NCBI GenBank assembly: GCA_965219685.1 | Contig: CBDCOH010000002.1 | Location: 3,040,001-3,104,000, forward strand | Direction: 5' to 3' | DNA from: Candidatus Spongiisociaceae bacterium | GTDB lineage: Bacteria > Actinomycetota > Acidimicrobiia > Spongiisociales > Spongiisociaceae | Length of the DNA: 64,000 nucleotides | Part shown: positions 23,721-46,791 of the stretch, one piece after another | Position numbering within the stretch: the stretch's first letter is position 1 | Layout of the letters: each line of letters starts with the position of its first letter | The notes under the pieces: generated by a model | Databases searched by the model: none | Seen by the model: only the letters and a program-made list of their open reading frames with translations | Told to the model about the DNA's origin: nothing | Program-made: the position numbers and the translations under genes

Positions 23721-26700
23721 CACCGGTAACCAATCACCCCTCATCGTTAGGACCACTTAGTCTATGTGTATTCCCGCGGTCCAGAGAACGGAGGCGGCTG
23801 CTCTTCGATGCCCTTCGTATCGCCTCCGAGTGGATCAAGCTGAGGTTGTTTTGGTTCCGATCGTGTTGCTGTGACAGAGCCTGATGGATGAGGAGCGAGC
23901 GCTTAGGAACGGGTGAGGCGCTTGCCTTTCGTAGGATTCGTCGTCGTGGGCGGGCTACCGATGTTAGTCGTGGGTTGATGATGGTGCTTCCCTTCCCACG
24001 ACTGACGACGTTTCGCTGGTCTGTAGACTCACCGGGACGGAAACGTCGGTGAAGGCTGAGCGGGTACAGTTGAGTTGGTGACGGCGTGGACGTGTCGTGT
24101 GGTTGCTGGTCGGTGGGTAGCGTTGGTGGTGGTGTCGGCTGTTGTCGGAGTTGTGGTGGGGGTAGGGGTTTCTGCACCAGCTGCGGCTGCTGATTCTGGT
24201 TCGGGGTTTTCGGATATTGGTGAGGCTGGGTCTCATCGGGGTTCTGTGGAGGCGTTGGCGGCTGAGGGTGTTCTGGCGGGGACGGAGTGCGCTCCGGAGA
24301 TGTTCTGCCCTGCTGAGCCGGTCCACCGGTGGGTGATGGCGGTCTGGCTGGTTCGGGTGATCGACGGCGCAGACCCCGACCGGTCAGGGGTGTCCCGGTT
24401 CGCGGATGTGGGTGCGGGCGAGTGGTGGGCGCCTCATGTGGAGCGTTTGGCCGAGTTGGGTGTTACTGCTGGTTGCGCTACCGGGCCGTTGCGGTTCTGC
24501 CCGTCCGAGGCTGTTACCCGCGCTCAGATGGCGTCGTTCCTGGTTCGGGCTTTCGGCCTTCCGGAGGGTTCGTCTGGTGAGTTCGCCGACATTGACGGAG
24601 ATGCTCACGCGGCGAATATCGATGCGTTGGCGGCTGCTGGTGTGACATCGGGCTGCTCGACCGATCCGCTCCGATACTGCCCTGGTCGGGATACCACTCG
24701 GGCTCAGATGGCAACGTTTCTGAGCCGTGCTCTGCAGTTTGGTTCGTCCAGACCGGTTGAGACACCGGAGGGTGGGGGGTTCAAAGCGGTTTCGGCTGGT
24801 AATGGTTTCTCGTGCGGGATCCGCGCCGATGGGACGGTTGCCTGCTGGGGTGCGAACTGGAGGGGTCAGGCAACCGCCCCGGAGGGGGAGTTCAGCACGG
24901 TAACCGCTGGCTTTGAGCACTCGTGTGGGGTACGCAGCGACGGGACTGTTGCCTGCTGGGGTGGGAACTGGGCCGGTCAGACCGATGCCCCCGAGGGGAA
25001 GTTCAGCACGGTTTCTGCCGGGTTTGGGCACTCGTGTGGGGTACGCACCGATTGGAGCGTTGTCTGCTGGGGCCAGAACTCCCATGGCCAGACCGACGCT
25101 CCCGCGGGCAAGTTCACCACAGTGTCCGCCGGATGGGCACATTCGTGTGGCGTACGCAGCGACCGCAGCGTTGTCTGCTGGGGAGACAACACCCATGGCC
25201 AGACCGACGCTCCCGGCGGCAAGTTCAGCGCCGTTTCCGCGGGACAGTCGCATTCGTGCGGGATAGGTAGCACTGGAAGGGTTGTCTGCTGGGGTGCGAA
25301 CTGGTGGGGTCAGGCTTCCGCCCCCGGGGGGAGGTTTAGCGCTGTCTCCGCGGGACGATCGCACTCGTGTGCGCTGTTTGATGATGCAACGGTTGCCTGC
25401 TGGGGTACCAATACCGATGGCAGAGCCGACCCACCCGACGGCCAGTTCACCAGCGTGTCCACTGGATGGGCACATTCGTGTGGGCTGTTTGATGATGCAA
25501 CGGTTGCCTGCTGGGGCAACGACAACGATCGCCGAGCCGGCCCGCCCGAAGGTGGGTTCAGGTCGGTATCGGTGGGAGGTGGGCACACATGCGGGATCCG
25601 CACCGATGGGACCGTCGCATGCTGGGGTTACGGCGCCGGTGGGCCTTTCGACCTATCGGACGGCAAGTTCATGAGTCTGGCTGTCGGGTTCGCTCATTCA
25701 TGTGGGATCCGCACCGACGGCACCGTTGCATGCTCGGGAGCCGATGCCGATGGCCGAACAGAGGCTCCGCGAGGAGAGTTCCGGTTGGTATCGGCAGGGT
25801 TTGCTCATTCATGTGGGATCCGCACCGATGGGACGGTCGTCTGCTGGGGCCAGAACTCCGATGGTCAGACCGATGCACCCGAGGGCAAGTTCACCACAGT
25901 GTCCGCCGGATGGGCCCACTCTTGTGGGATCCGCACCGATGGGACGGCTGTCTGCTGGGGTAACAACTGGGCGGGTCGCGCTGACGCTCCTAGCGGGAGT
26001 TTCAACGCTGTATCGGCCGGGAATGGGCATTCGTGTGGGATCCGCACCGATGGGACGGCTGTCTGCTGGGGAATCAACTGGGCGGGTCGCGCTGACGCTC
26101 CTAGCGGGAGTTTCAACGCTGTATCGGCCGGGGATGCGCATTCGTGTGGGATCCGTACCGATCGGACTGTTGTCTGCTGGGGGGACAACACCGACAGCCG
26201 AGCCGACGCACCCGAAGGCAAGTTCAGCGCGGTTGCCGCCGGGTGGGCGCATTCGTGTGGTGTCCGGTCGAGCGGGATCCCAGACTGTTGGGGCCGCGAC
26301 CCGGTTGTCCCGTTTCCCGCCGGTGTGCGACAAGCCGCATGGCCCGGGGGTCCGGACCCGCAGATGTGTCGTCCTAGGGGAGTGGAACGTCACACAGCCG
26401 GTTTCCCCCTCCCAGGCTGGGCGGTGCCGCCTAGCGGGAAACTACGGGTAGCGGTCCTCTTTGTGGACTTCCCCGACGCGGTGGCCCGACACTCCACCCA
26501 GCGCGAAGCCGCCGGGCGGTTGCGGGAGGTCGAAGAGCGCATCGAGCGTTACAGCTACGGAAAACTAGAAGTCGAGTTCGGAGTGCTACATGGCTGGCTG
26601 CGCGCCCAACATGGCTACAGGCACTACGAGGCTGACTCTGTGGCAGGTGGAGTCCAGATCGAGGCGGACACCGTCAGGGAGGCTGTGCGGCTCGCCGACG

Positions 26701-27139
26701 ACCGTTTCGACTTCGCCGGCTACCACCAAGTACTGGTCGTCGCACCCAGTTCACACTTCGGGGGCGGCGTCGCCGTTGACGGAGTCCACACCGATGAGGG
26801 ACCGATCGGCCGAGCGGCCGTGATCAACTCTTACAGACATGACAAGGACACAGACCCCAACGACTGGAGTTATGCTGCAGCTCACGAAATCGTCCACGGA
26901 CTCGGACTGCTAGACCTGTATCCCTTTGACCAGGCGCGGCACCGGCAACCAGCTCCCCCCAGAGACCGCAAATGGGTACCCTCCAGGTTCGGTCTCATGA
27001 ACCTATGGGCCTACTTCCTCACAGACGAAAGAGACCCACGCCTCGCGCTTACTTGGCATTGGCCCGACGGCAACACCACCACCGATCTGAACCGCCCCGG
27101 TTACCCCGGAGACTCGATTAGTTGGGAGATAATGGAGTC

Positions 27140-28380
<1,241 letters not shown>

Positions 28381-29297
28381 AACACTCTCCGGCAAACCCG
28401 GGGCGGTTCAATCACAACCTGGGTTCAGTGCTGGCTGAGGAAATGCTGGCGTGGAGTCGCTGGCAACTCGGTTGGCTCGAACCCGACCAAGTCCTGTGTG
28501 TCACCGACAAACACACAACCGTAACCCTGACTCCTGTTGCCGACCCCGGCCGGGGCACAGCAATGGTCGCAATCCCCCTATCCAGGTCCGAAGTCATCGT
28601 CATCGAGAGCCGACACAGGATCGGCTATGACAAGGGCCAAGAATACCAAGCCCCGAACGGGGCGCAGACCACCTTTCCAGCCCTCCTCACCGAGGGCGTC
28701 CTCGTATACACAGTCGACGCCACCCTCGGATCAGGGAACCTACCTGTGAAAGTGGCTGGCGACTCGGGAAACGGACAAGTAGACGACTACCCCATCCTCA
28801 CCCGCGGCCAGAGTGTCACCACCCACGGCTACACCATCACCGTGATCTCTACAACACCCAACACCACGATCACAATCACACAAGAGTGAATCCTCCTGAG
28901 CCGCGCTGAACATCCGTGGGTTAGGTAGGGGCCCTTCGCGTGTGTGGGCGTTGGGCCCCCCTTCCTGTTGTGTTGGTGGGTCCCGGCAGCCGTTTTGTTG
29001 TGGTGGTGGCTGGTGGGGGTCGAGTAGCTGTTTGAGGTTGACCCGCTTTGGTGGACACTACTCTCCGGCAGACCCGGGGCGGTTCACCCCTTCCAAACCC
29101 GAGTCATCACCCGAATCCCCGACTAGCCCCCATCCCTCCTAGCCGACCGAACCTACCCCCCAAACCGTCCCACAACACCCCGACCCGGAGGGCCGGAGAA
29201 CCCGCCGGCACAGACACCCTACGAACGCGACTACCCCCTCGTCAGATACCCACCTCAGCAACCCATAACGGGGTAGGTCGATCGTCGGGGTGGCAGC

Positions 29298-29342
29298 AGG
29301 ACGGGACCGGTGCCCGCAGCCAGACCCCGGTCCGACCTGTCC
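29298..29342 (-). other. Stem-loop 3' of the pentamer array
   Basis: GGACCGG...CCGGTCC inverted repeat, extendable by GGAC/GTCC; no U-tract, so not called a terminator. Confidence 0.5.
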
Positions 29343-29350
29343 GCTCTGGA

Positions 29351-29429
29351 TGTCCATGCCGTGCGCTGCCGCGCCATGCCTGGCGGTGCCATGCCAAGCT
29401 TTCCGTGCCTTGCCAAGCCAAGCCCCGCC
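29351..29429 (-). repeat. Pentamer array (GGC-NN)x~16, candidate guide RNA
   Basis: GGCGG GGCTT GGCTT GGCAA GGCAC GGAA AGCTT GGCAT GGCAC CGCCA GGCAT GGCGC GGCAG CGCAC GGCAT GGACA, starting 3 nt after the RAMP stop codon. Confidence 0.9.
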
Positions 29430-29432
29430 TCG

Positions 29433-30029
29433 CTAGTCGACCGTTTCGATGTTCTCCACTTCGAAGCGTCCGTACTGTCCCGACTTCTGGGGTCGCCAGT
29501 CCCCGATCCCGAGCCGCCGCCCACCGATGTCCAGCCAGGTGAGCAGCTGGTCACGGTCGACGAGTTCGTCGTCCACATCGACGACGAAAGTGACCGCCCA
29601 CCGCTCGAACCGGGCCCGGGTGCGCAACACTCGGCGGCCGTTCACCATCACCCCGGTCGTGAACTGGCAACTACGCGCCAACTCGGCGGCGGTGGTACCC
29701 AGCGACTGGTCGTAGTCGAAGGCCTCGACCGTCTGGACGTTGAGTCCTTCCCGTACTAGCGGTCCCTGGCGGAGTTTTCGGGCGGCGTACTCGATGTTTG
29801 ACCGAAGCGCCGCCGCCGGGACCGTAGGCGCTCCGATCTCGTCGAGGTAAAGCGAAACGAGGCACTCCAACTCCCGGAGGCGGACCTCGTCGGTCTCTGT
29901 CCGGTTACCCGCCCGTTTCTTGGTGATCTCCGCCTTCTCGATGTTGGCAGCCGATCGGGTGTCCAATCCGGCCGCTCCGTTGTTAGTGATGAGGGGGCTA
30001 ACACCCCGAATTGTGATCCGATACCGCAT
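29433..30029 (-). CDS. Stand-alone RAMP/Cas7-like protein (Vipr-like), 198 aa
   Basis: RAMP-type beta1 RITIRGVSPL, PTVPAAALRS helix motif, C-terminal G-rich loop LGIGDWRPQKSGQYGRFEV; GGAGG RBS. Confidence 0.8.
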   Translation of the reverse strand: MRYRITIRGVSPLITNNGAAGLDTRSAANIEKAEITKKRAGNRTETDEVRLRELECLVSLYLDEIGAPTVPAAALRSNIEYAARKLRQGPLVREGLNVQTVEAFDYDQSLGTTAAELARSCQFTTGVMVNGRRVLRTRARFERWAVTFVVDVDDELVDRDQLLTWLDIGGRRLGIGDWRPQKSGQYGRFEVENIETVD

Positions 30030-30391
30030 TCCGCGATCACCTCCCTAAAGCGAGCCACGAACTCATACACGCTGCCCCCAGCCCGACTGAACCGGCGCAG
30101 GCTGGTAGCCAGCCGATGACACAGCGAACACAAACCCACCAGATCCGACGCCACGAGCTTGGGCCGCCCACAGCAGGCGTCGTCCCGCCCGCACGGATAC
30201 ACCAGGGCGCTGTGATGCGCTTCTGCGGCTGCTCGGAGCCCGCAGAAGGAACAGCAGCCCCCGTTACGGGCCAACACGTAGGACCTCAACAGCAGGTACC
30301 TCGGCCCGTACGCATCCCCGCAACGCGCCACGACCGGCTTGTCCGCCCTGGCCGATACACGGTCCGGCGCCGATCCTTGCTCTGTGTTCAC
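29756..30391 (-). CDS. HNH endonuclease-like zinc-finger protein
   Basis: R..VLARNGGCCSFCG...EAHH...DLVGLCSLCH; the tail overlaps the RAMP gene. Confidence 0.65.
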   Translation of the reverse strand: MNTEQGSAPDRVSARADKPVVARCGDAYGPRYLLLRSYVLARNGGCCSFCGLRAAAEAHHSALVYPCGRDDACCGRPKLVASDLVGLCSLCHRLATSLRRFSRAGGSVYEFVARFREVIAECGIGSQFGVLAPSSLTTERPDWTPDRLPTSRRRRSPRNGRVTGQRPTRSASGSWSASFRFTSTRSERLRSRRRRFGQTSSTPPENSARDR

Positions 30392-30414
30392 CCGTCGGGA
30401 CCTCCCCGGGCTTC

Positions 30415-30510
30415 ATGGTACCGTAGCCCTATAGGCCTATGGTACCATACCATAGTAAGGGATAGAAGGGATCCGGTGGTTAGGGTCGGTACCATCGGGG
30501 CGTACCCGAT
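30415..30510. promoter_or_regulatory. Divergent promoter region with repeated GGTACC-centred palindromes
   Basis: ATGGTACCGT (30415), ATAGGCCTAT (30431), TATGGTACCATA (30438), CGGTACCAT (30487). Confidence 0.55.
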
Positions 30511-30523
30511 CCCCCTTCTCAGT

Positions 30524-30760
30524 GTGAGTGTCCGGCACCCAGACCACAGCGATATCGAGCAGCAGACCCTCCAAGCGTGGGAGACCTATCGGAGGGCTAA
30601 TCGGGCGCGTGTGGAGGCCTCGGCCGCTGTGGACGCGAAACTCGCTGCTGCCCGCTCGGAGGGGGTTTCCATGTATCGGATGGCCAAATGGCTCGGAGTC
30701 ACTGAACGGGCGATCAAGGTACGGCTCGAGAAGTACGACCGAACACACCCCAAGCCCTGA
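30524..30760 (+). CDS. Small HTH DNA-binding protein
   Basis: AARSEGVSMYRMAKWLGVTERAIKVRL; start codon uncertain. Confidence 0.65.
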   Translation: MSVRHPDHSDIEQQTLQAWETYRRANRARVEASAAVDAKLAAARSEGVSMYRMAKWLGVTERAIKVRLEKYDRTHPKP

Positions 30761-31494
30761 AGCCCCACCGAGGACAGGCACCACATCTGTAGCGCGTGCC
30801 GTTTCCGGGAGGACACCGTTTTGGACAGCGGCGCGAGGGTTGGTTTGTGCGGGGCGGGAGGCCGCGGATTGTTGTCTGGGTTTTCGTGTAGTGTCTGGTG
30901 GTGTGGGTTAGCGATCCGTCCGGGTCTATGGTGATCGGGTGACGACCCGACGCGACGGCTCCTATCCCGCTGCCCGACCCGGTTTTCCCTATACCGGGCT
31001 CGTTCCGCTGCTGTGAGCTTCCTCGCGGCGGAGATTGCCGCTCTGGGCGGGCTTGCGCAACGTGTCCGTATCCGGTTTCAGTGCCGTCCCAGCCAGGTCC
31101 GACCGAACGGCTTCCTCCGTGTCGAAATGGTCGCTCGCTGTTTCAGCCGGGGTCTGGTTCTGCGAGCGCTCGCCGCTCTTGTGGCCCGCCAGGCCGCTAA
31201 GGGAGTGGCTGCCGGCAGTCGGTTGGCGGGTGGGGGTTGTCCGGGCGCTGGGCTGGGCGTTGTTGTGGGTTGCAGCCGCCGAAGCCTGATCCGGATCGGT
31301 GTCGGAGCGTGGGCCGGGCCGCCACTCCTGGTTGCTGAGGATCGGGACAGTTAGCTGTCGAGGGTGTCTCGAGCGGCTGCTACGGCGTTTCGGGGTTGGT
31401 GAGGGTTGGCGGGGTCGAGCCGGGACCGTCCCAGACCGGTAGTGCCGAACCCGCATGTGCGACGTTCGTGTTTTGGTTGGGGCTGGTGTCGCGG

Positions 31495-32499
31495 TTAGGT
31501 GGGGTGGTCACCCCAGCGTTGGGCGCCGAGGTATTGGCCGGTTGCTAGGTCGTGGTCTTCGAGGGTTTCTATGAGGCGTTCGGTGGGACTGTTGGACCAG
31601 CCGAGCCGGTCTGCGGCTTGTGGGTCGGGGATGTGGGTGTCGGCGTACAGGGCTGCTCGGCAAGCCGCCCACCCGAGCGCTTCTGCCAGCCGTCCGGACG
31701 GTTCGGCACCGTGCCGTGCCGGTAGGGGCCGGGGATGCTCGAACCAGGCCGGAATGGTCTTCTCGTGCCAGACGCTGATCCAGTAGGCACCGGGTGGGGT
31801 GAGGAGGTGTTCGAAGTTGGCGCGGTGCGGCTGGAGCAGGCGGTCACACAGCTCGGAGATGTCATGTCCCCACGTTGTGGTACCGGGAACGGCTGCGAGG
31901 TGGATGAGCGCTCGGATCGAGTCTGCGACCACAGCATGGGCCGCTGCGCACGCCCACAACAGCGCGGTCGAGTACCGGTCGGGGTCTTTGGCCTGTTCTT
32001 GGCGGTTGCGGACAGCGCCGGCCAGGTAGCTGCGCAGCTGTGCCACGCCTGCGTCCACCGACCCGAGCATCGCGCGCGCCTCTCCCAGGGCGTTGGTGGC
32101 CGACACCATCGGCTTGTCCCAATCCACCCCTAGGGCCGGGCGGTCGGCGAGGACCTTCCCGTAGGAGGCCACGTGCCGTTCCATCGACGTTTCGATCCCT
32201 TCGGTACGGGTTTTCCACTCGGGCCGGTCAGTGACCAGCAGCTGTATCGGATATCCCGACGCTTCCTCAGCAGCCTCCCGCAGCGAGTCGGTCATGCTGT
32301 CGCGCTGGTCGTAGTCCAGGTCGTCGTAGACGGCGACGAGGTCGATGTCGCTTCGGGCGGTCTGTTCACCGCGAGCGACGGAGCCGAACAGCACCACCCG
32401 ACCAACACCAGCCTCCACCAGCACCTCCGCGGCCCGTTCCGCGTCGCGGAGCGACGGTGGCACTCCCGGCCCGGCCTTTCCGCGTTCAGAAACATTCAT
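31495..32499 (-). CDS. Minimal nucleotidyltransferase (MNT) fused to a HEPN-like domain
   Basis: VVLFGSVARG...SDIDL; helical C-terminal half with WGHDISEL. Confidence 0.75.
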   Translation of the reverse strand: MNVSERGKAGPGVPPSLRDAERAAEVLVEAGVGRVVLFGSVARGEQTARSDIDLVAVYDDLDYDQRDSMTDSLREAAEEASGYPIQLLVTDRPEWKTRTEGIETSMERHVASYGKVLADRPALGVDWDKPMVSATNALGEARAMLGSVDAGVAQLRSYLAGAVRNRQEQAKDPDRYSTALLWACAAAHAVVADSIRALIHLAAVPGTTTWGHDISELCDRLLQPHRANFEHLLTPPGAYWISVWHEKTIPAWFEHPRPLPARHGAEPSGRLAEALGWAACRAALYADTHIPDPQAADRLGWSNSPTERLIETLEDHDLATGQYLGAQRWGDHPT

Positions 32500-32823
32500 C
32501 CCGACACTTCCTCCCTTCCCTTACTTCATCCGCAGACCAGGCTGCCCCCGGCTCCTACGCACGTTCCACCCCGTGGCCTGGACCGGTCTGGTATCGCGCC
32601 CTCTGTTCCGCCGGTTGGGTCAACTCCCGGGTTTCGCATTGTTGCGGTAGAGCTATCCGCAAGACCCCCGATCCCGGCTCGCGAACGGATCAAAGCCCGA
32701 ACCGACCGGTCCGCCCGTACGGGCTGGTGCTCAGTTGCAACGAGCGGGACGGCCCGCTCCGGGAACGACTGCCTGCCTGCAGGATCTGTCCGGTCCTGTC
32801 GGTGTTCGCGGCACCTACAGCCG

Positions 32824-35157
32824 TTACTGTGCCCATCGGACTCCTTCGGGGGCTGGTATCAGGCCCCTTTGGCCCCAGCATGCTGCTTGGCCGTCTGTTC
32901 TTATTCCGCAGGATGTGTGGGTGAACAGGGTGAGGGAGCTGAATTCGCTTCCGGGTGGTTCTGTTTGTCCGTGGTCGTTGGGTCCCCAGCACGCGACGGT
33001 GCCGTCTGTTCGTATCCCACAGGAGTGCGTTCCGTCTTGGACGCTGACAGCCACGGCGGTGAACCGCCCGTCGGGTGCGTCTAGGTTCCCTTGATGGTCG
33101 TAGCCCCAGCATGCGATCGAGCCGTCGGTGCGGAGCCCGCAGATGTGGTCGTAGCCGCCCGAGAGGGCGGTGAACTGCCCGTCTGGTGCTTGGGTGTAGC
33201 GGCCCCAGCACGAGGCGGTGCGGTCGCTGCTGATGCCGCAGGTGTAGTCAACCCCGACGGCTACGGCGGTGTATTGGCTGTCGGGTGCGGCCAACGCTGC
33301 GGCGGGTGCTTGGTCACCCCAGCATGTGACAGCCCGGTCCGCTCGGATGGCGCAGGAGTGGGTGATGCCGGTGGCGAGGGTCGTGTATTGCCCGTCGGGT
33401 ACGTTCAGCTGTGCTTGGTCGTTCCGGCCCCAGCACACGATTCCACCGTCCTCCCGGAGTCCACATGAGTGTTGCGCCGAGGCCGACACCGTAGCGAACC
33501 GGCCGTCGGGTGGGTCGGACTGGCCTTCGTCGTTGTCTCCCCAGCACACGACCGTGGCGTCCGTGCGGAGTGCGCAGGTGTGTCCCCGTCCGGCGGTGAT
33601 GGACGTGAACCGTCCGTCGGGTACGTCGAGCTGGTCGGTTGTTCCTCCCCAGCAGGAGACAGTGCCGTCCGCTCGCAGACCACACAGATGGTGGAGCCCA
33701 CCGACCACCGAGGCGAACGCGCCGTCGCCTATTCGCCCGCCCCAGCAGACAACGGTGCCGTCCTCCCCCAACCCACACGTATGGAAGGGTCCTGTGGCTA
33801 TAGCAGCGAAGGTTCCGTCGGGAGCGTCGAGCTGTCCGTGGTCGTTCCCGCCCCAGCAGACGATGGTGCCGTCCTCCCGCAGGCCGCAGGAGTGGGCCGC
33901 CCCGGCGGTGACCGCCGCGAAGGAACCGTCGGGAGGGTCGGACTGCCCGTCTGTGTTACGGCCCCAACACTGGACGGTGCCATCCGCCCGCAGCCCACAC
34001 GTATGGAGGGGTCCCGCGGCTATGGCGGTGAAGGTCCCGTCGGGAGCGTCGCGCTGCCCGGCGAGGTCGTTGTCGCCCCAGCAGACAACCGTGCCGTCCT
34101 CCCGCAGCGCACACGTGTGGGCAGAACCGGCGGTGACCGCAGCGAAGGCTCCGTCGGGAGGGTCGGACTGCCCGTACTGGTTCCAACCCCAACACTCAAC
34201 CATCCCGTCCGCCCGGAGCCCGCACGAATGCCCGAACCCGGCTGTGATAGCAGTGAAGGTTCCGTCGGGTGCGTCGAGTTGTCCGTATTGGTTCCAGCCC
34301 CAGCACTGGGCGGTGCCGTCGGCCCGGAGTCCGCACGAATGCGCGAGCAAGGCGGCAAGGTCTGTGAACTTCCCATCGGGTGGATCCGCCTGACCCCAGG
34401 TGTCGAAACCCCAGCAGACCACAGAGCGGTCGGCTCTTAGCGCGCAGCTGTGGTCCGTGCCGGCTGCGATCTTGGTGAACCCCCCGCTGGGTGGGGTTGT
34501 CTCATCCGCGTCGGGTAGTAGGCCGAATGCTCTGGCTAGGAACGTGGCCATCTGAGCCCGGGTCGTCGCCTGGCCGGGGCAGAAACGGAGAGGGTCGGTG
34601 GCGCAGCCCACCGTGACTCCCGCCGCGGCCAACGCGTCGATGTTGGCCTCGTGAGTGTTACTGGCCGTGTCCGCGAACCCCGCCGGACCTGCGGGGTCGA
34701 GACCGACCGCCCGGACCAGGAACGTGGCCATCTGAGCGCGGGTCACGACCTGGTGGGGGCAGAACCGCAGCGGCTCCCGGGCGCAGCCCAAGGTGACCTC
34801 CAGGTCCGCGAGCCGCTCCACATAGGGTGTCCACCACTCGTCGGTGTCCACATCGGCGAAGCGTGTTCCCGCCTCGCTGGTTGGAGACTCGCCCAACGCT
34901 CGGACCAGCCACACCGCCATCACCCAACGGCGGATCGGATCTCCCGGACAGAACAGGCCCTCCCCACACTCGGTACCTGCCAGCACCCCCGCATTGGCCA
35001 GAGCATCGATCGCCGGCTCATGCACCGACCCGTCATCGTCACCAAACCAACCCGCCGCCGACACACTCACAGCCAGCACCACCAGCAGCATCACCGCCGT
35101 ACCCAACAGCATCCACACACCGACACGGCCACGAGCCACGCAACCATTCACAGACAT
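32824..35157 (-). CDS. Secreted SLH x3 + about 14 RCC1-like repeat protein (intact)
   Basis: Signal peptide, three SLH repeats, HSCGLRADGT..CWG repeats. Confidence 0.92.
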   Translation of the reverse strand: MSVNGCVARGRVGVWMLLGTAVMLLVVLAVSVSAAGWFGDDDGSVHEPAIDALANAGVLAGTECGEGLFCPGDPIRRWVMAVWLVRALGESPTSEAGTRFADVDTDEWWTPYVERLADLEVTLGCAREPLRFCPHQVVTRAQMATFLVRAVGLDPAGPAGFADTASNTHEANIDALAAAGVTVGCATDPLRFCPGQATTRAQMATFLARAFGLLPDADETTPPSGGFTKIAAGTDHSCALRADRSVVCWGFDTWGQADPPDGKFTDLAALLAHSCGLRADGTAQCWGWNQYGQLDAPDGTFTAITAGFGHSCGLRADGMVECWGWNQYGQSDPPDGAFAAVTAGSAHTCALREDGTVVCWGDNDLAGQRDAPDGTFTAIAAGPLHTCGLRADGTVQCWGRNTDGQSDPPDGSFAAVTAGAAHSCGLREDGTIVCWGGNDHGQLDAPDGTFAAIATGPFHTCGLGEDGTVVCWGGRIGDGAFASVVGGLHHLCGLRADGTVSCWGGTTDQLDVPDGRFTSITAGRGHTCALRTDATVVCWGDNDEGQSDPPDGRFATVSASAQHSCGLREDGGIVCWGRNDQAQLNVPDGQYTTLATGITHSCAIRADRAVTCWGDQAPAAALAAPDSQYTAVAVGVDYTCGISSDRTASCWGRYTQAPDGQFTALSGGYDHICGLRTDGSIACWGYDHQGNLDAPDGRFTAVAVSVQDGTHSCGIRTDGTVACWGPNDHGQTEPPGSEFSSLTLFTHTSCGIRTDGQAACWGQRGLIPAPEGVRWAQ

Positions 35158-35324
35158 CTCTTGTCTCCCTAGATCAGCCATGTACCCATCTGAGTTCCCC
35201 CCGCCACCAGCGAAATCCCAACACTCACCCCGCCATAGTGCATAGTCGTTGTGATAGTCTCACGCTATGAGCATACCATCGGGGTTTGTGTCGCTACCCA
35301 GCATCGGCCGGTACAATCCGAGAG

Positions 35325-35789
35325 ATGGCAGACGGCACAGGATTAGGCACCCGAATCCGAGCCCGTCGTACCGCTTTAGGGCTAACCCTTGCCGAAGTAG
35401 CAGAACGCGCCGGCCTCTCGAACCAGTACATGTCCAACCTTGAAAACGGCCACCGCAGCCCCAGCCTCGCCGCGCTCCGCGCCATCGCCGCAGCCCTCGG
35501 CCAAACCGTCGCCGACCTGCTCGGCGACGGTGCGGACACGATGAACGTCGACCTGTTGGCAACAGCACTAGCCGACGCCCCCCAGTCGCTACTCACCTTC
35601 ACCCGATCCGAACACTTCCGAGACGCCGTCCACCGCCTCGCCGACGAACACCAGATCGACCCCCAAGACCTACACACCCGGCTCACCATCGGGATGGCCA
35701 TCGCCCCCCGACACTCAGGCGACATGCCCACAGACCACGACTGGCGTCGCCTCCTCGACGCCTACACCCTCATCCTCCGAGACGGATAA
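35325..35789 (+). CDS. XRE-family HTH regulator (paralog of 2130-2594)
   Basis: HTH_3 signature; only a few substitutions relative to the first copy. Confidence 0.9.
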   Translation: MADGTGLGTRIRARRTALGLTLAEVAERAGLSNQYMSNLENGHRSPSLAALRAIAAALGQTVADLLGDGADTMNVDLLATALADAPQSLLTFTRSEHFRDAVHRLADEHQIDPQDLHTRLTIGMAIAPRHSGDMPTDHDWRRLLDAYTLILRDG

Positions 35790-35818
35790 CCAAAGCCGAC
35801 CAGGACGGGGAAGCAGGC

Positions 35819-36238
35819 ATGACACCCACAGAAAGCCAGCGCAGCCGCCCAGAATCCGTCTACACCAAAGAGCCCGCACCCGGCGAGGTGATCATCCGGG
35901 ACCAGACCGGATACCGCGACGGCTACAGCGCCATGTACGACGGACCCGTCGCCGTGGCCCTGCCCGACGACGTGGCAGACCCGAACACTCCCAAAGCGTC
36001 CGGCATTGTCGAGCTGCCGCGCCATCTCGGACCGTCACCGCCGATCCCCTTCGACCTCGACAACTGGGTGGACCGCCGAGCCGTCTACGGCAGAGTCCTC
36101 GAAGACGGCACCCCAGACGACGTAAGCTGGTTCATCGACGTACACAAACTCGTAGAGATGTGGGACCGGATCATGCTGTCGGACTATGTCCTGTCGGTGT
36201 GGGAACCATGGCTACGAGACAACGGCTACCTGCGCTAG
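35819..36238 (+). CDS. Hypothetical antitoxin-like protein (paralog of 2624-3070)
   Basis: Nearly identical translation to the first copy. Confidence 0.55.
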   Translation: MTPTESQRSRPESVYTKEPAPGEVIIRDQTGYRDGYSAMYDGPVAVALPDDVADPNTPKASGIVELPRHLGPSPPIPFDLDNWVDRRAVYGRVLEDGTPDDVSWFIDVHKLVEMWDRIMLSDYVLSVWEPWLRDNGYLR

Positions 36239-37149
36239 AACAGTCAACTGGTCCGTCGTTGGTCCTGCATCACGAAAGGCGACAAGCGTCACCTCCACCT
36301 CCCGGACGCCCTCAAGAAGGAATGCAGAGTTGGCAACAGGTAATCAAGTCGCTTGGCATCGTCCCTTGCGTCGAGGTACGCGACGATGGTGTCGACGATC
36401 ATCGCCCAGCCCGGGTGAGTGTCGCCCTCTCAGCTAGAAGCGATCGGACTTCGCTGGTGTAGGGCCGCCTTTGTGACCCGATCACATCAAGGCCTCTGCA
36501 GGCCTCGATCTAGCTCGCTCGGTCACGGCCAACTCCGTTACCAACGGTCTGGCAGAATCCCAACCGAGGTGAGCCCCTGGCACGGTTGGTGCGGGTCCCT
36601 GACTATGTCCACCTTCCCGCGCGCTGTGGCGGCGGTGAGTTCAGCCGCTTCGTGGGTCAGGACTGTTCGGATCAGGTATTCCGTTACGTCCAAGTGAGGG
36701 TCTGTCGCTCCTCTCCTGTGCTGCAGGTCTCCAATCTCGACTATGGCCGCTGAGAACCTGGCCACTACCAGAACGGTGGCCACCCGTAAGAACACTATCC
36801 GCCCGCCGCGTCTCCTCTGAGAGGCACGCCCGGACGCTCCTTGCCCAGCCACCGTGACCCTGATGGCGATCACTGGCCACCCAGAAGAAACCTTCTCAGG
36901 TTGTCAGCGAGCCAGTCCCCATCCGTCGACCCAACAAGCCGTCGTCGCCCGCTTACGCCCGTCAATGGACAGTCGCACCGCGGACCCGTTCCCCTGAGAG
37001 GACATACGCAAGAACTCGCCTCGTGCTAGAACGCTCGTCTCGCTGGCATTAGGAAACGGGCTCCCTTGCGGAGAACGACGCAGTTTCGCCGTTGTCGGAA
37101 CCGCAGGCATCGCGGGTGTCTCCGCCGCTTCCTACCTCACCGGGTGGGC

Positions 37150-37563
37150 CTACCTGTAGTAGGCGTCGTCTGCGAGACGCTCCAGCAGATCCTCGTCCAC
37201 ATCGTCCCGATGCCACAACGGGCCTGCGCCCGACACGTCCGCTTCCAGCCTGACCCCACCAAACACGGCTACCACTTCGAGACGACCGCCCATGTTCTCG
37301 ACGAGGGCACGGAGAGTAGAAAGCATGTAGTCGTTGCCGTCCGGGTCATCACGCTCATCCAGACCCATACGCCCCTGGAGGCGCAAAGCCAGCCCCCCGA
37401 GCAGAGAGAAACGGAACCGCTCGATCTCCAAAGCGTTGTAATCGACCACCTCCGCCCAGGCATCGTTCTCCGCCTCGATACGTCCGCGACTCCACACCGC
37501 GTCCTGGCTCCGCCCGGTGCCGGCAACACGGTGCTGTGTCGGTGGTCCCTGTGTAGTCGTCAT
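37150..37563 (-). CDS. Degenerate HigA/XRE-type antitoxin-like protein
   Basis: LSTLRALVENMGGRLEVVAVF C-terminal signature; HTH not recognisable. Confidence 0.5.
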   Translation of the reverse strand: MTTTQGPPTQHRVAGTGRSQDAVWSRGRIEAENDAWAEVVDYNALEIERFRFSLLGGLALRLQGRMGLDERDDPDGNDYMLSTLRALVENMGGRLEVVAVFGGVRLEADVSGAGPLWHRDDVDEDLLERLADDAYYR

Positions 37564-37584
37564 GTCGTCTCTATCCGCTTGAAG

Positions 37585-37640
37585 GTGATCGCGATCACTG
37601 CCATTCCCCAGAGTTGATCAGCGAAACTCCCCACCCTGGG
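37585..37640 (+). mobile_element. IS21-type terminal repeat remnant
   Basis: ATTCCCCAGAGTTGATCAGCGAAACTCCCCACCC resembles 58443-58493. Confidence 0.65.
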
Positions 37641-38635
37641 TGAATTGGTGAGTCTAATGGTGGCGACCTTTCGGTCGCTGCCTGCGGTCGTCGGGTTGGT
37701 TGGCTAACTGCTGGTGGCGGTCGCCTGATCGGCTACACCACAACCTCTCAGCCCGATGATCCGGCTACCAACGGCGCAGGCGTCTCTTTTCGTGCGTTGC
37801 GTGCAGCGGCCAGAACGCTCTGCTGATCGCCAGCAGCGAGGACCATCTCCACCATCGCCCAATACCGGCGCGGCTGTTCTCCGTGCAGAGGGCGGGGTTC
37901 CGGTTCTGGGCCTGGAGGTGGGTGGTTGCCGTTGACGGTAGCTCGGGGAGGAGGACCGCTAACGGGTTCGGTGGAGCCGAACCCGGCGAGGATCCGCTCA
38001 GCGCCGGCTCGCTCGTCTGTGGGATCGCGGCCTCCTCTTCAGCGCGGTTCCGCGGGCGGAAGGCCGAGCAGGTGACCGAAAGGAAGGAGGGGCAGGGGGG
38101 CAGGGGCGAAGCGGCTGTCGACGCCGAGCGGCGAAACGCTGGCCGTGGCCAGCGGTGGTGAGGCAGAGAAGGGTGGTTCAGGGCGGAGTCCTTCACCTAG
38201 CGAGCTAAGAACTTCTTGGGCAGGGAGAAGTGCAGTCTGGTGGTACACCGCGGCCCTAAAGGGGACGCAATCGGTCCTCGGTCGTCGACAGGGTCAAGAG
38301 GCATAACCCTTCCGCTACCGCGCGGAACCGAAGGCGCACACGAGCCGACTGGCGTCGGCGGAACACACCGACGATGCGCATTCTTACAAGCTGACGGGCG
38401 AACCGAAACACGGACTCGGGTCAGGGTCGAACTCGTCGGTGGGAAGTAGACCATGCCGTACAAGCCCGTTTGAGGGATCAGTCATTGGGGATCTCCACTG
38501 GGTCTGGCCCTCGGCCAGCAGGTGAAAGAGTAGTCAACTGACTGCCAGCGTCGTCGAGGGGTGGTCGCCGGTGGCGAAACGCCTAATAACCGACGGTTTG
38601 GCGACTGCAGCGACAGTGGCCGACAGTAAATACAT

Positions 38636-44854: not shown

Positions 44855-45175
44855 TAATCGCGCAGTCGGAACCTGGGCACATCCACCGCCGTTTCCGCCA
44901 CCGCATCCGCACCGGCCGCCAAGCGCCGACAGATCCACCAACACGACCCTCCGATACCCCTTGGACCACACCCGGCTCCGATAGCCGTCACAGACCGGGC
45001 AGGGTTTGCGGGAGCGGATCACCACCAGAGGTTCCCCCTTGCCCAGCTCGTCGGTACCGACCAATCAACCCTCGCCATGGCCTACCTGCAACTCGCACAT
45101 GCGCGTAGGATCAACTCCCACAGGGGTCCTCCTCGCCCTCAAGATGCCCTACTCCCCACTCACTTCCGAAGAACC
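44855..45175 (-). pseudogene. ISL3 left end and N-terminal fragment
   Basis: GGTTCTTCGGA end; CPVC, LVDL..GRPV..RWRKRRW.CP. Confidence 0.75.
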
Positions 45176-46163
45176 TGTTTGCTGTTGTGGTTGGTAGGTT
45201 CCGAGTCGTGGTTTGGATCGTGTTCCTGAGTTGGTGACGTAGCTCGGCTAGTGAGGGAGTTGGTGTGTCGGTGTGTAGTCTGTCCAGCAGTTCGTTAAGG
45301 TCCCATCGTAGGGTTTTACCCTGGCGGGCTAGGTAGATACCGACCTCCTTTATGTGGTATTCATCTTCGTAGTCCAGTAGAACGTAGCCGATTAGCTGAT
45401 ACAACATCGTGTTCGTGATCTTGGGAACGACAGTGGTCTTGATATCTAGAAGACACTCGTTCAATATCAGGTCAGCGTCGGCTCCGCCGATGTCTCCGCT
45501 TCCCTTAAACGTTGGGTTCAGATGGACAGGGTCGGAGAGATGTTCGCTATAGCGTTCATAGAATCTGTTTGACATTGAACACAAGTCGTCTATCCACCGG
45601 TCGTCAGGGATCGAGAGCAAATCCGAAACTGTTGAAGTGTTCGTCTGCGCGAAGAGAAGGTTCTTGGGATGTGCACCGATTCGGAAGAGTTGTTCGAAGA
45701 GAGCAAGAGCGAAACAATACCTATTCAGTTGTCGTTCCTGAACCGTCCCCAGGTCTCTGCCGCATGGATCAACCTGCCCAAGGAACCTCTCCAGGTCCTC
45801 GAAGAACCGACTGATCAGGGCTGGTGAGATAGAGTATCTCCGATCCAGAGTCTGCTTATGGCGGTATGCTCCCTTAAGAGCGACCAGTTCCGTAGAGCGG
45901 GTAATCGCAAAGTAGTAACGAATGCGATAGTCAATCGCTATACCCAATTCCCCATACGGTACAGGCTGATCTAGTAGACTCTCGGGGAGAACAGTATGGA
46001 CCTGTGCCAGTCTCCTGTTCTGCCCCCTGATAACACCACCAGTGTTAGGGAATCTCTCGTAGAAGAACCGACGTATATCATTGTCCGCCATCTGCGGTGA
46101 TCCAAGACGACGATGGCGAGACGGCTTGCTCAAGAAGAAACTCAACGACACCAATCCTCCCAT
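45111..46163 (-). CDS. PD-(D/E)XK nuclease-like protein
   Basis: GGADADLI....LLDIKTT...YQLIGY; lower GC; start uncertain; 3' end runs into the ISL3 end. Confidence 0.7.
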   Translation of the reverse strand: MGGLVSLSFFLSKPSRHRRLGSPQMADNDIRRFFYERFPNTGGVIRGQNRRLAQVHTVLPESLLDQPVPYGELGIAIDYRIRYYFAITRSTELVALKGAYRHKQTLDRRYSISPALISRFFEDLERFLGQVDPCGRDLGTVQERQLNRYCFALALFEQLFRIGAHPKNLLFAQTNTSTVSDLLSIPDDRWIDDLCSMSNRFYERYSEHLSDPVHLNPTFKGSGDIGGADADLILNECLLDIKTTVVPKITNTMLYQLIGYVLLDYEDEYHIKEVGIYLARQGKTLRWDLNELLDRLHTDTPTPSLAELRHQLRNTIQTTTRNLPTTTANRFFGSEWGVGHLEGEEDPCGS

Positions 46164-46260
46164 CGTAGTAAGTCAAACTGGAACTACTTGGCTGAATAGT
46201 TCCTCGTCACGGACCCGCGGTGCAGGCATTTGTCACAGACTCAACCATATACTCGGGCGA

Positions 46261-46791
46261 ATGGCGATCACGAACGAGCGAAAGACACGCCTTCACAGCC
46301 TTGACAACGAGTGTTGCCTCCGCTGCGGTAGCAGCCGCGAGCTCCAGGTTGACCACATACTCCCCAAAGACTTGGGCGGGTCCGACCGTTGGGAGAACCT
46401 CCAAACCCTCTGTAAAGCTTGTAATCAACGGAAAAATGCCTTATACATAGACTACCGAACGGATGGTCGTCGTCTTGCCGCCGAAAAAATGGACGGCGGT
46501 GCGCCGCTACAAGCTCCGGAACTAGAGAGACTCGCGGCTGCCACCGGAGCCTTGGACAGAGCACTCCAGCAACGGTATGAGGCCCTGCTAGCTGCGGTCA
46601 CAGCTGAGCCTTCCCAGCAGGCCCTTGCAGCGGCTGCTATCGGGGCCTTGGACAGAGCACTCCGGCAATGGGATGAGACGCTGCTAGCTGCGGTCACAGC
46701 TGAGCCTTCCCAGCAGGCCGTGGCAGCTGCGGCCGGTTTGACTGCGCCCGCGCGTCTAGATGCTCCGCCAGTCATGGACAAGCAGACATAG
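46261..46791 (+). CDS. HNH endonuclease with duplicated ~31-aa C-terminal helix
   Basis: CLRCG...VDHILP...GG.D..ENLQTLCKACNQRK. Confidence 0.85.
   Translation: MAITNERKTRLHSLDNECCLRCGSSRELQVDHILPKDLGGSDRWENLQTLCKACNQRKNALYIDYRTDGRRLAAEKMDGGAPLQAPELERLAAATGALDRALQQRYEALLAAVTAEPSQQALAAAAIGALDRALRQWDETLLAAVTAEPSQQAVAAAAGLTAPARLDAPPVMDKQT

Follow-up and report, generated by a model that had tools for sequence, protein, structure and literature searches.

Where the gene for an HNH-type zinc-finger protein runs into the gene for a stand-alone RAMP protein, does it supply a nuclease to an RNA-guided filament, or is it a passenger that happens to lie there? The question was approached in a 64,000-nt stretch of contig CBDCOH010000002.1 (assembly GCA_965219685.1, positions 3,040,001–3,104,000), hereafter the window, to whose positions all coordinates refer. 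The features concerned are listed below.

29756..30391, minus strand: vap-HNH gene, 211 aa, GTG start, with GGAGG at 30405-30401, 9 nt upstream; its relatives also lie upstream of vipr
30030..30331, minus strand: folded zinc-finger HNH domain, approximately residues 21-121, with C47, C50, H59, H60, Y65, D83, C88, C91 and H92
29756..30028, minus strand: arginine/serine-rich tail of 90 aa, read in frame +1 within vipr codons 1-91
30039..30044, minus strand: Shine-Dalgarno sequence of vipr, GGAGGT, within the HNH coding sequence
29433..30029, minus strand: vipr gene, encoding a stand-alone RAMP/Cas7-like protein of 198 aa with the G-loop IGDWRP; 814 homologs
29823..29852, minus strand: focal constrained stretch, vipr codons ~60-68, corresponding to tail residues F181-R190
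29351..29434, minus strand: vrRNA repeat tract of 6 pentamers, a 4-nt GGAA unit and 10 pentamers, starting at the vipr stop
29290..29344, minus strand: possible hairpin in the 3' tail of the vrRNA, whose fold is not significant (z -1.35)
30515..30760, plus strand: short HTH-like gene, divergently oriented and with an uncertain start; its match to Pfam HTH_50 (E 0.059) is below the cut-off

VIPR, a CRISPR-like RNA-guided DNA-binding system, was first described in 2026 (bioRxiv 10.64898/2026.04.26.720920). The RAMP protein of the window has the RRM, thumb and G-loop of a stand-alone RAMP and is homologous to Vipr; its model (pLDDT 93.8) matches Csm3/Cas7-type folds at an E of about 2e-4. The profile of its clade scores the Vipr of Felixounavirus HY02, to which the window protein is 26% identical, at E 3e-25, and HY02 Vipr in turn carries, at the same numbers, 13 of the 14 SUSP1 Vipr residues checked, which were taken from the accessible part of the structure paper (bioRxiv 10.64898/2026.04.26.720927). 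The Vipr of the type II VIPR of phage SUSP1 is likewise homologous to that of the window, and shares with it R39, R138, D177, W178 and R179, K82 being present as R. The window protein differs in having Asn at the G1-reading His17 and Ala at both E71 and M72; SUSP1 K33 aligns with A33, beside a near-invariant K32. As far as the SUSP1 system is described in the accessible parts of the VIPR papers, it uses a GGY/NN guide, as in the window, but it is phage-borne, silencing and accompanied by the non-enzyme vap1, whereas the window system is chromosomal and has a predicted nuclease Vap. In HY02 the gene neighboring vipr lies downstream of it without overlap, whereas the HNH gene of the window lies upstream and overlaps.

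The repeat tract adjoining vipr is a GGY/NN tandem array of 17 units, where such tracts have at least four and typically 9–16. Exact GGY-NN is found in 11 of the 17 units, and the GGAA unit introduces a 1-nt register shift. This tract is the best in the 64-kb window, nowhere else in which at least 8 of 17 is reached, and relatives of the locus carry similar tracts with register shifts. In this shift the tract is like the staggered arrays that the VIPR preprint describes for Fig. S18, and it may possibly give two staggered guides. Just past the vrRNA lies a lone insertion-sequence end (29064-29087). Besides the downstream array, loci L003 and L004 (3647-3686 in each) carry a further GGY tract of 8 units immediately before the HNH start, and one genome holds two near-identical systems. 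In another genome (L153, G739) about 1 kb following a distant vipr contains GGY 13 times over, which makes a long array for several guides. The window locus is minimal, with a vap gene and no adjoining CRISPR array or cas operon: no CRISPR-like repeats occur among the 20 largest repeat families in 24000-38000, and no cas families among the neighboring ORFs scanned. Together, the HNH gene, vipr and the GGY/NN tract make up a chromosomal VIPR system.

A search for guide targets returned no credible one in the genome itself or in the viral contigs scanned. The best site in the genome matched 16 of 20 bases (15–17 in shuffles). Scanning viral contigs turned up exact 18-base matches, 2 in one scan and 3 in the other, on 4 contigs, about what chance would yield by estimate; one viral contig matches all 20 guide bases, yet it is a GVMAG record, which we take to denote a giant virus, and not a plausible target. 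No sigma-70-like promoter was found. The stretch 30392-30515, which separates the HNH gene from the HTH-like gene, has three GGTACC palindromes, candidate operators, and the HTH-like gene, which occupies the same place in two other intact loci of the family (L006 and L007, 52–59% identity), is a candidate regulator.

The first-pass annotation had described a CxxC...HH...LCxxCH protein on the RAMP strand whose folded part ends where the RAMP gene starts, and both observations proved correct. C47xxC50, H59-H60, Y65, D83 and L-C88xxC91-H92 are all present, and the last helix ends at about residue 121, its codons holding the vipr Shine-Dalgarno sequence at 30044-30039. Residues 21-120 were modeled with a pLDDT of 91.8. 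Searched singly, neither the window vap-HNH nor the window Vipr matched Pfam; the HNH assignment comes from the family alignment, in which 15 of 28 members match PF01844. Across these 28 sequences, 17–64% identical, the columns of C47, H59, H60, Y65, C88 and H92 are invariant and that of D83 is nearly so.

Among solved structures, profile comparison puts the HNH that is fused to Cas5 in type I-E Cascade (PDB 8YB6, 8YHA, 8ZP9) nearest, at E 8.5e-11, the next family following at 1.6e-6. In a fold search with the HNH model, Cas5-HNH took the top five ranks, the best E being 9.6e-3 and none falling below 0.001. Both proteins share the pattern CxxC…H-x-x-Y…DL…CxxCH, and H60, D83 and H92 of vap-HNH align with H310, D324 and H333 of Cas5-HNH; this is the ββα fold with a His/Asn(Asp)/His site, in which the change from Asn to Asp is common to both. 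In Cas5-HNH, H310A and D324A abolish cleavage and H333A does not, according to the accessible part of that report (bioRxiv 10.1101/2024.07.22.604555). With H60, D83 and H92 intact, the vap-HNH site looks active as judged from its sequence, and the idea of a cutting rather than silencing variant fits the retention of a site whose counterparts H310 and D324 are needed for cleavage. The Vap thus carries a predicted HNH nuclease domain, as expected of a nuclease-type VIPR.

Linkage was followed in both directions. A total of 135 loci were gathered by Vipr homology, except four found through the HNH; 132 had a Vipr profile match, and dropping 42 loci (partial, with less than 350 nt upstream, N-containing or identical) left 90 non-identical ones. 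An HNH-profile match was present in 54 of the 132 Vipr loci (the window being counted twice), always on the same strand and directly upstream, and 48 of the 90 non-identical full-length loci have the HNH directly upstream of vipr. The reverse evidence consists of 61 related genomes and the 150 best HNH database matches: all three HNH-matching genomes among the 61 have the HNH against vipr, and 69 of the 150 matches have C-terminal tails that match vipr read in a shifted frame, with 0 in shuffles. The gene-neighborhood comparison of RAMP homologs that the first-pass annotation had called for therefore finds the HNH linked to vipr in other genomes, and its alternative of a passenger HNH is refuted by the fixed upstream site together with the vipr-frame tails. 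HNH genes are common, and the same genome has eight other, weaker HNH-profile matches, which would suit a passenger, but with linkage running from vipr to HNH and from HNH to vipr a passenger without a VIPR link is hardly credible. The HNH accompanies VIPR as a regular partner.

Only the nearest part of the HNH family is VIPR-linked, since the family as a whole is very large, with 86,443 of 1.84 billion representatives matching at E≤0.001. Within the window's own Vipr clade (support 95 on a quick tree) the HNH is present in 11 of 15 rows and absent in 4, and is therefore dispensable there. On the same tree HNH presence clusters, requiring 7 changes compared with 37.7 in shuffles, a contrast inflated by kinship among the loci. 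The vipr cassette is patchy, being found in 5 of 401 genomes of the order; the order sample yielded nothing beyond the known loci except remnants and broken copies, no further loci of the clade turned up in 400 other genomes of the class sample, and the class of genome G435 gave 2 distant matches. In a word-indexed protein search with the HNH domain none of 25 candidates scored, a tblastn search of the Vap against named phages gave no match, and a single-protein HNH scan of viral contigs returned only the protein itself.

Patchiness of this kind, the common decayed copies and the very large HNH family would all suit a homing-like mobility nuclease that spreads the vipr cassette, with the overlap a form of hitch-hiking outside interference. 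We consider this improbable, given that the HNH keeps a constant upstream position across deep Vipr divergence and clusters on the Vipr tree, is not inserted into vipr, and shows no separate DNA-binding domain in the 100-aa model.

Several decayed copies were seen directly. The genome of the window has a second copy at L001:4841-5214 (G000:C2:861840-862213), without a nearby repeat tract, in which the HNH is 77% identical and a deletion of about 234 nt joins it to vipr codons 71-103. At L002:4757-5000 (G000:C2:3129756-3129982) there is a frameshifted vipr remnant, codons 89-164, which stops where an insertion sequence ends, similar to the end at 29064-29087 in the window. Related loci L138 and L139 (G002) and L156 (G1071) hold 5'-truncated or broken vipr copies, L156 retaining a broken HNH and the tail in place. 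The vipr cassette seems to decay often.

The overlap itself was confirmed at 274 nt (29756-30029), read in frame +1 and encoding 90 aa. Contigs from four runs of one sample, possibly the source of the window DNA, show 0 substitutions or indels over the stretch, and three of the four span it unbroken; since the contigs of all four runs agree, the overlap is not an obvious assembly slip. The first-pass annotation had also raised the possibility that homologs stop near 30030, and the opposite was seen: 47 of the 48 HNH genes continue into vipr, 11 of them in frame +1 by 232–298 nt and 36 in frame +2 by 86–299 nt, where the start of one locus (L094) was set by hand and is approximate. Frame +1 overlaps belong to the window's clade, which is mostly cellular, and frame +2 overlaps to a distant viral group. 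In the remaining locus, L022, the HNH gene ends 32 nt before vipr, so overlap is not obligatory.

Openness of the vipr region follows the frame of the HNH. The window-clade loci are open in +1 in 11 of 11 cases and in +2 in 1 of 11, and the viral loci in +2 in 35 of 36 and in +1 in 0 of 36; among HNH-less loci, 4 of 42 are open in +1 and 20 of 42 in +2. Over vipr codons 2-76, nine clade loci, the near-duplicates L004 and L015 left out, have 0 frame +1 stops at 115 possible sites, compared with 12 of 142 distally. Four close HNH-less relatives have frame +1 stops at 3 of 50 sites, L013 having none; because these relatives are also stop-poor, a single locus would be stop-free about 30% of the time. 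For the 274-nt open frame of the window locus, synonymous re-drawing gives p 0.019 and the distal stop rate of the clade about 0.25. One open frame alone is not very surprising, and the recurrence across loci is the part beyond chance.

An HNH domain that ends exactly at the vipr start recalls Cas5-HNH, which is fused in frame to the Cas5 C-terminus within a multi-subunit Cascade using a contiguous crRNA (bioRxiv 10.1101/2024.07.22.604555, as far as accessible), and raises the possibility that a programmed frameshift joins HNH to Vipr; one database protein (P0191) indeed passes from the tail into Vipr sequence over some 38 residues. That protein leaves the frame again, however, as a sequencing error would, and full in-frame fusion occurs in 0 of the best 150 HNH matches. 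A slippery site of the form X-XXY-YYZ lies near the junction in 0 of 11 clade loci and in only 2 of the 36 viral ones. In the window the vipr frame holds a TAG (30047-30045) 18 nt before vipr begins, vipr has its own Shine-Dalgarno sequence, and the two groups would need opposite shifts. On the missing slippery site, the upstream TAG and the separate Shine-Dalgarno sequence we rejected a frameshift fusion, which is very improbable. Vap-HNH is unlike Cas5-HNH in being a separate protein, N-terminal to its tail, with that tail coded in a shifted frame over vipr, and the window locus has no in-frame HNH-RAMP fusion within a Cascade operon with a CRISPR array.

Is the overlapped tail under selection? 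Among its 90 residues are 20 Arg and 16 Ser, giving a net charge of +14. Fourfold-site divergence of vipr in the clade is 0.444 in the overlap compared with 0.609 in the rest (column permutation p 0.0009, and 0.005 without Leu/Val). The same test on 18 of 36 viral loci shows a weaker effect (p 0.03), and on 25 of 42 HNH-less loci no effect (p 0.17 and 0.58); since loci share ancestry, these p values overstate the signal. Constraint is focal: third-position divergence falls to 0.24 at vipr codons 61-75, compared with 0.41–0.52 elsewhere in the overlap. T184, E187 and R188 are invariant in 13 of 13 aligned tails, and the uncommon vipr codons CTT, GGA and CCT are retained in the focal stretch, where all 9 loci use GGA and 6 of 7 use CCT, compared with distal frequencies of 16/82 and 2/25. 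The motif at 181-190 is lost in the HNH-less loci L012, L013, L016 and L019, absent from the frame +2 tails and only partial in L054. Of the changes in the tail frame 18.4% are silent, compared with 13.5% of the distal ones, and they are also milder (BLOSUM -0.92 vs -1.26). The codon positions did not show the ratio that selection on the protein should produce (pos1/pos2 1.32 vs 1.29). The overlapped tail is likely under selection, at the level of protein or RNA, as far as these comparisons of sequence indicate.

The competing account is that the tail has no function as protein: an old loss of the HNH stop would have led to read-through without harm, and the codons would be conserved for the sake of an RNA hairpin or of translational control of vipr. 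We take this account seriously, while holding it to be short of even odds. In its favor is a consensus RNA hairpin at vipr codons 60-67, which has 8 pairs, 2 of them with compensatory change, but the hairpin is weak (whole structure -1.44 kcal/mol), has a positive covariation term and leaves the conserved GCG and CCT codons outside it. Tails often end where a Leu-Lys/Arg codon pair of vipr spells TGA, at +259 in 5 of 11 loci, and there are two unrelated tail sequences in two frames, which together with the stop-poor HNH-less relatives and the missing pos1/pos2 shift speak for tolerated read-through. The absence of stops at all 115 sites, the agreement of the open frame with the HNH frame in both groups and the loss of the motif in the four HNH-less loci argue in the other direction.

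Our preferred reading, to which we assign a probability of roughly 0.6, is that the Vipr-vrRNA complex binds a gapped DNA target and that the HNH, held nearby by its tail, cuts it, acting as the nuclease Vap of a VIPR system on a host chromosome. From the layout, vap-HNH, vipr and the repeat tract would be read as one unit. Vipr, by homology with SUSP1, where this is shown, would coat GGY/NN RNA and bind DNA by a code that skips 1 nt. The zinc-bound HNH would then nick or cut DNA through H60 and D83, at or beside the bound filament, and if the HNH cuts, the invader would be destroyed, not only silenced. The tail may serve as a long, flexible, basic tether, its motif at 181-190 most likely docking on the filament or its DNA, and its location inside vipr would keep the genes from separating and tie their translation. 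A comparable arrangement is the Cas5-HNH Cascade, in which the HNH sits on a long linker to the RAMP-RNA filament (bioRxiv 10.1101/2024.07.22.604555, accessible part). Tethering, docking and gene tying form the weakest step of the proposal, for which the odds are about even. The predicted complex of two Vipr and one full Vap scored 0.20 against a mark of 0.32 and was weighed neither way.

The HNH may instead be a true partner that does not cut the guide target, either as a DNA clamp that strengthens silencing, in the manner of vap1, or as a DNase without specificity that is triggered when the filament finds a target and causes the death or arrest of the cell. Some Vaps are not enzymes, and protection is enhanced when vap1 is co-expressed (bioRxiv 10.64898/2026.04.26.720920, accessible part). 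The accessible part of the structure paper (bioRxiv 10.64898/2026.04.26.720927) calls what accessory nucleases sense unknown and places both DNA strands inside the filament core, where they may be shielded. The strongly basic tail would also suit such a role. Mere binding, however, needs none of the HH, D and CH residues, yet these are invariant or nearly so, and among solved structures the nearest relative is an HNH that cuts its target under RNA guidance; we consider this alternative unlikely and retain cutting at the guide target as the preferred reading.

The locus lies on a 4.39-Mb contig amid insertion sequences and SLH/RCC1 surface proteins, and no phage hallmark was found among the neighboring ORFs scanned. 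PADLOC matches occur in 3 of 25 neighboring proteins (a nucleotidyltransferase, an HTH and a PD-(D/E)XK protein), all generic domains, in an IS-rich region. The neighborhood is mostly insertion sequences and surface proteins, with no clear defense island. An IS3-type element (orfA/orfB, 27122-28390) splits a protease-like end (remainder 28221-28889) from an SLH/RCC1 gene (24075-27248). A nucleotidyltransferase gene lies at 31495-32499, and the helical C-terminal part of its product may perhaps be HEPN-like; an interrupted copy, 84% identical, is present at G000:C2:3037178-3039540. About 15 kb from the VIPR locus, 45111-46791 contains a PD-(D/E)XK-like gene together with a gene for a classical HNH (PF01844) that is unrelated.

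According to the accessible parts of the VIPR preprint (bioRxiv 10.64898/2026.04.26.720920), predicted nucleases or helicases are found in types III–V, of which III and V resemble host defense and probably destroy their targets, and HNH is among the Vap domains in the legend of Fig. S21, where types II, III and VII are shown. Since the preprint already predicts nuclease and HNH Vaps, the idea of a cutting variant is not new; two later preprints (bioRxiv 10.64898/2026.10.15.759431 and 10.64898/2026.10.21.760802) contain 0 occurrences of HNH in their accessible text. As described there, the nuclease-Vap types III–V resemble the window locus in having vipr, one vap and a GGY/NN RNA, no adjoining CRISPR array and a cellular location. 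They differ in being linked to host defense or defense islands, whereas the window locus has no clear defense island, and in that the overlap and tail are present in the window locus but absent from the preprint text and legends found. The window system is a well-supported member of the nuclease-type VIPRs, probably of type III. A tail overlapping vipr was not found in print in the preprint's text and legends, though locus drawings may already show the overlap. In a 15-billion-protein collection, neither of the vap-HNH forms looked up was found, although the Vipr from the contig was present, so that nuclease-type VIPRs may be more numerous than published counts suggest.

In the VIPR papers found, as far as accessible, no nuclease-type VIPR is reported to cut DNA, and the structure paper (bioRxiv 10.64898/2026.04.26.720927) names the question as open. 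The window locus offers a compact test case, with H60, D83, E187 and R188 as the residues to mutate. An HNH cloned only as far as the vipr start would lack its 90-aa tail, which appears to be under selection, and recoding vipr would alter that tail. More broadly, and tentatively, nuclease-type VIPRs could tether an HNH to the guide filament by a shifted-frame tail inside vipr, in two versions, one in frame +1 and mostly cellular, the other in frame +2 and viral. Doubtful as this generalization still is, it would describe a programmable nuclease of about 1 kb with inseparable genes, similar to an HNH-Cascade of the Cas5-HNH kind, with a closely related HNH but without the fusion, and perhaps the type of module behind the HNH-Cascades.
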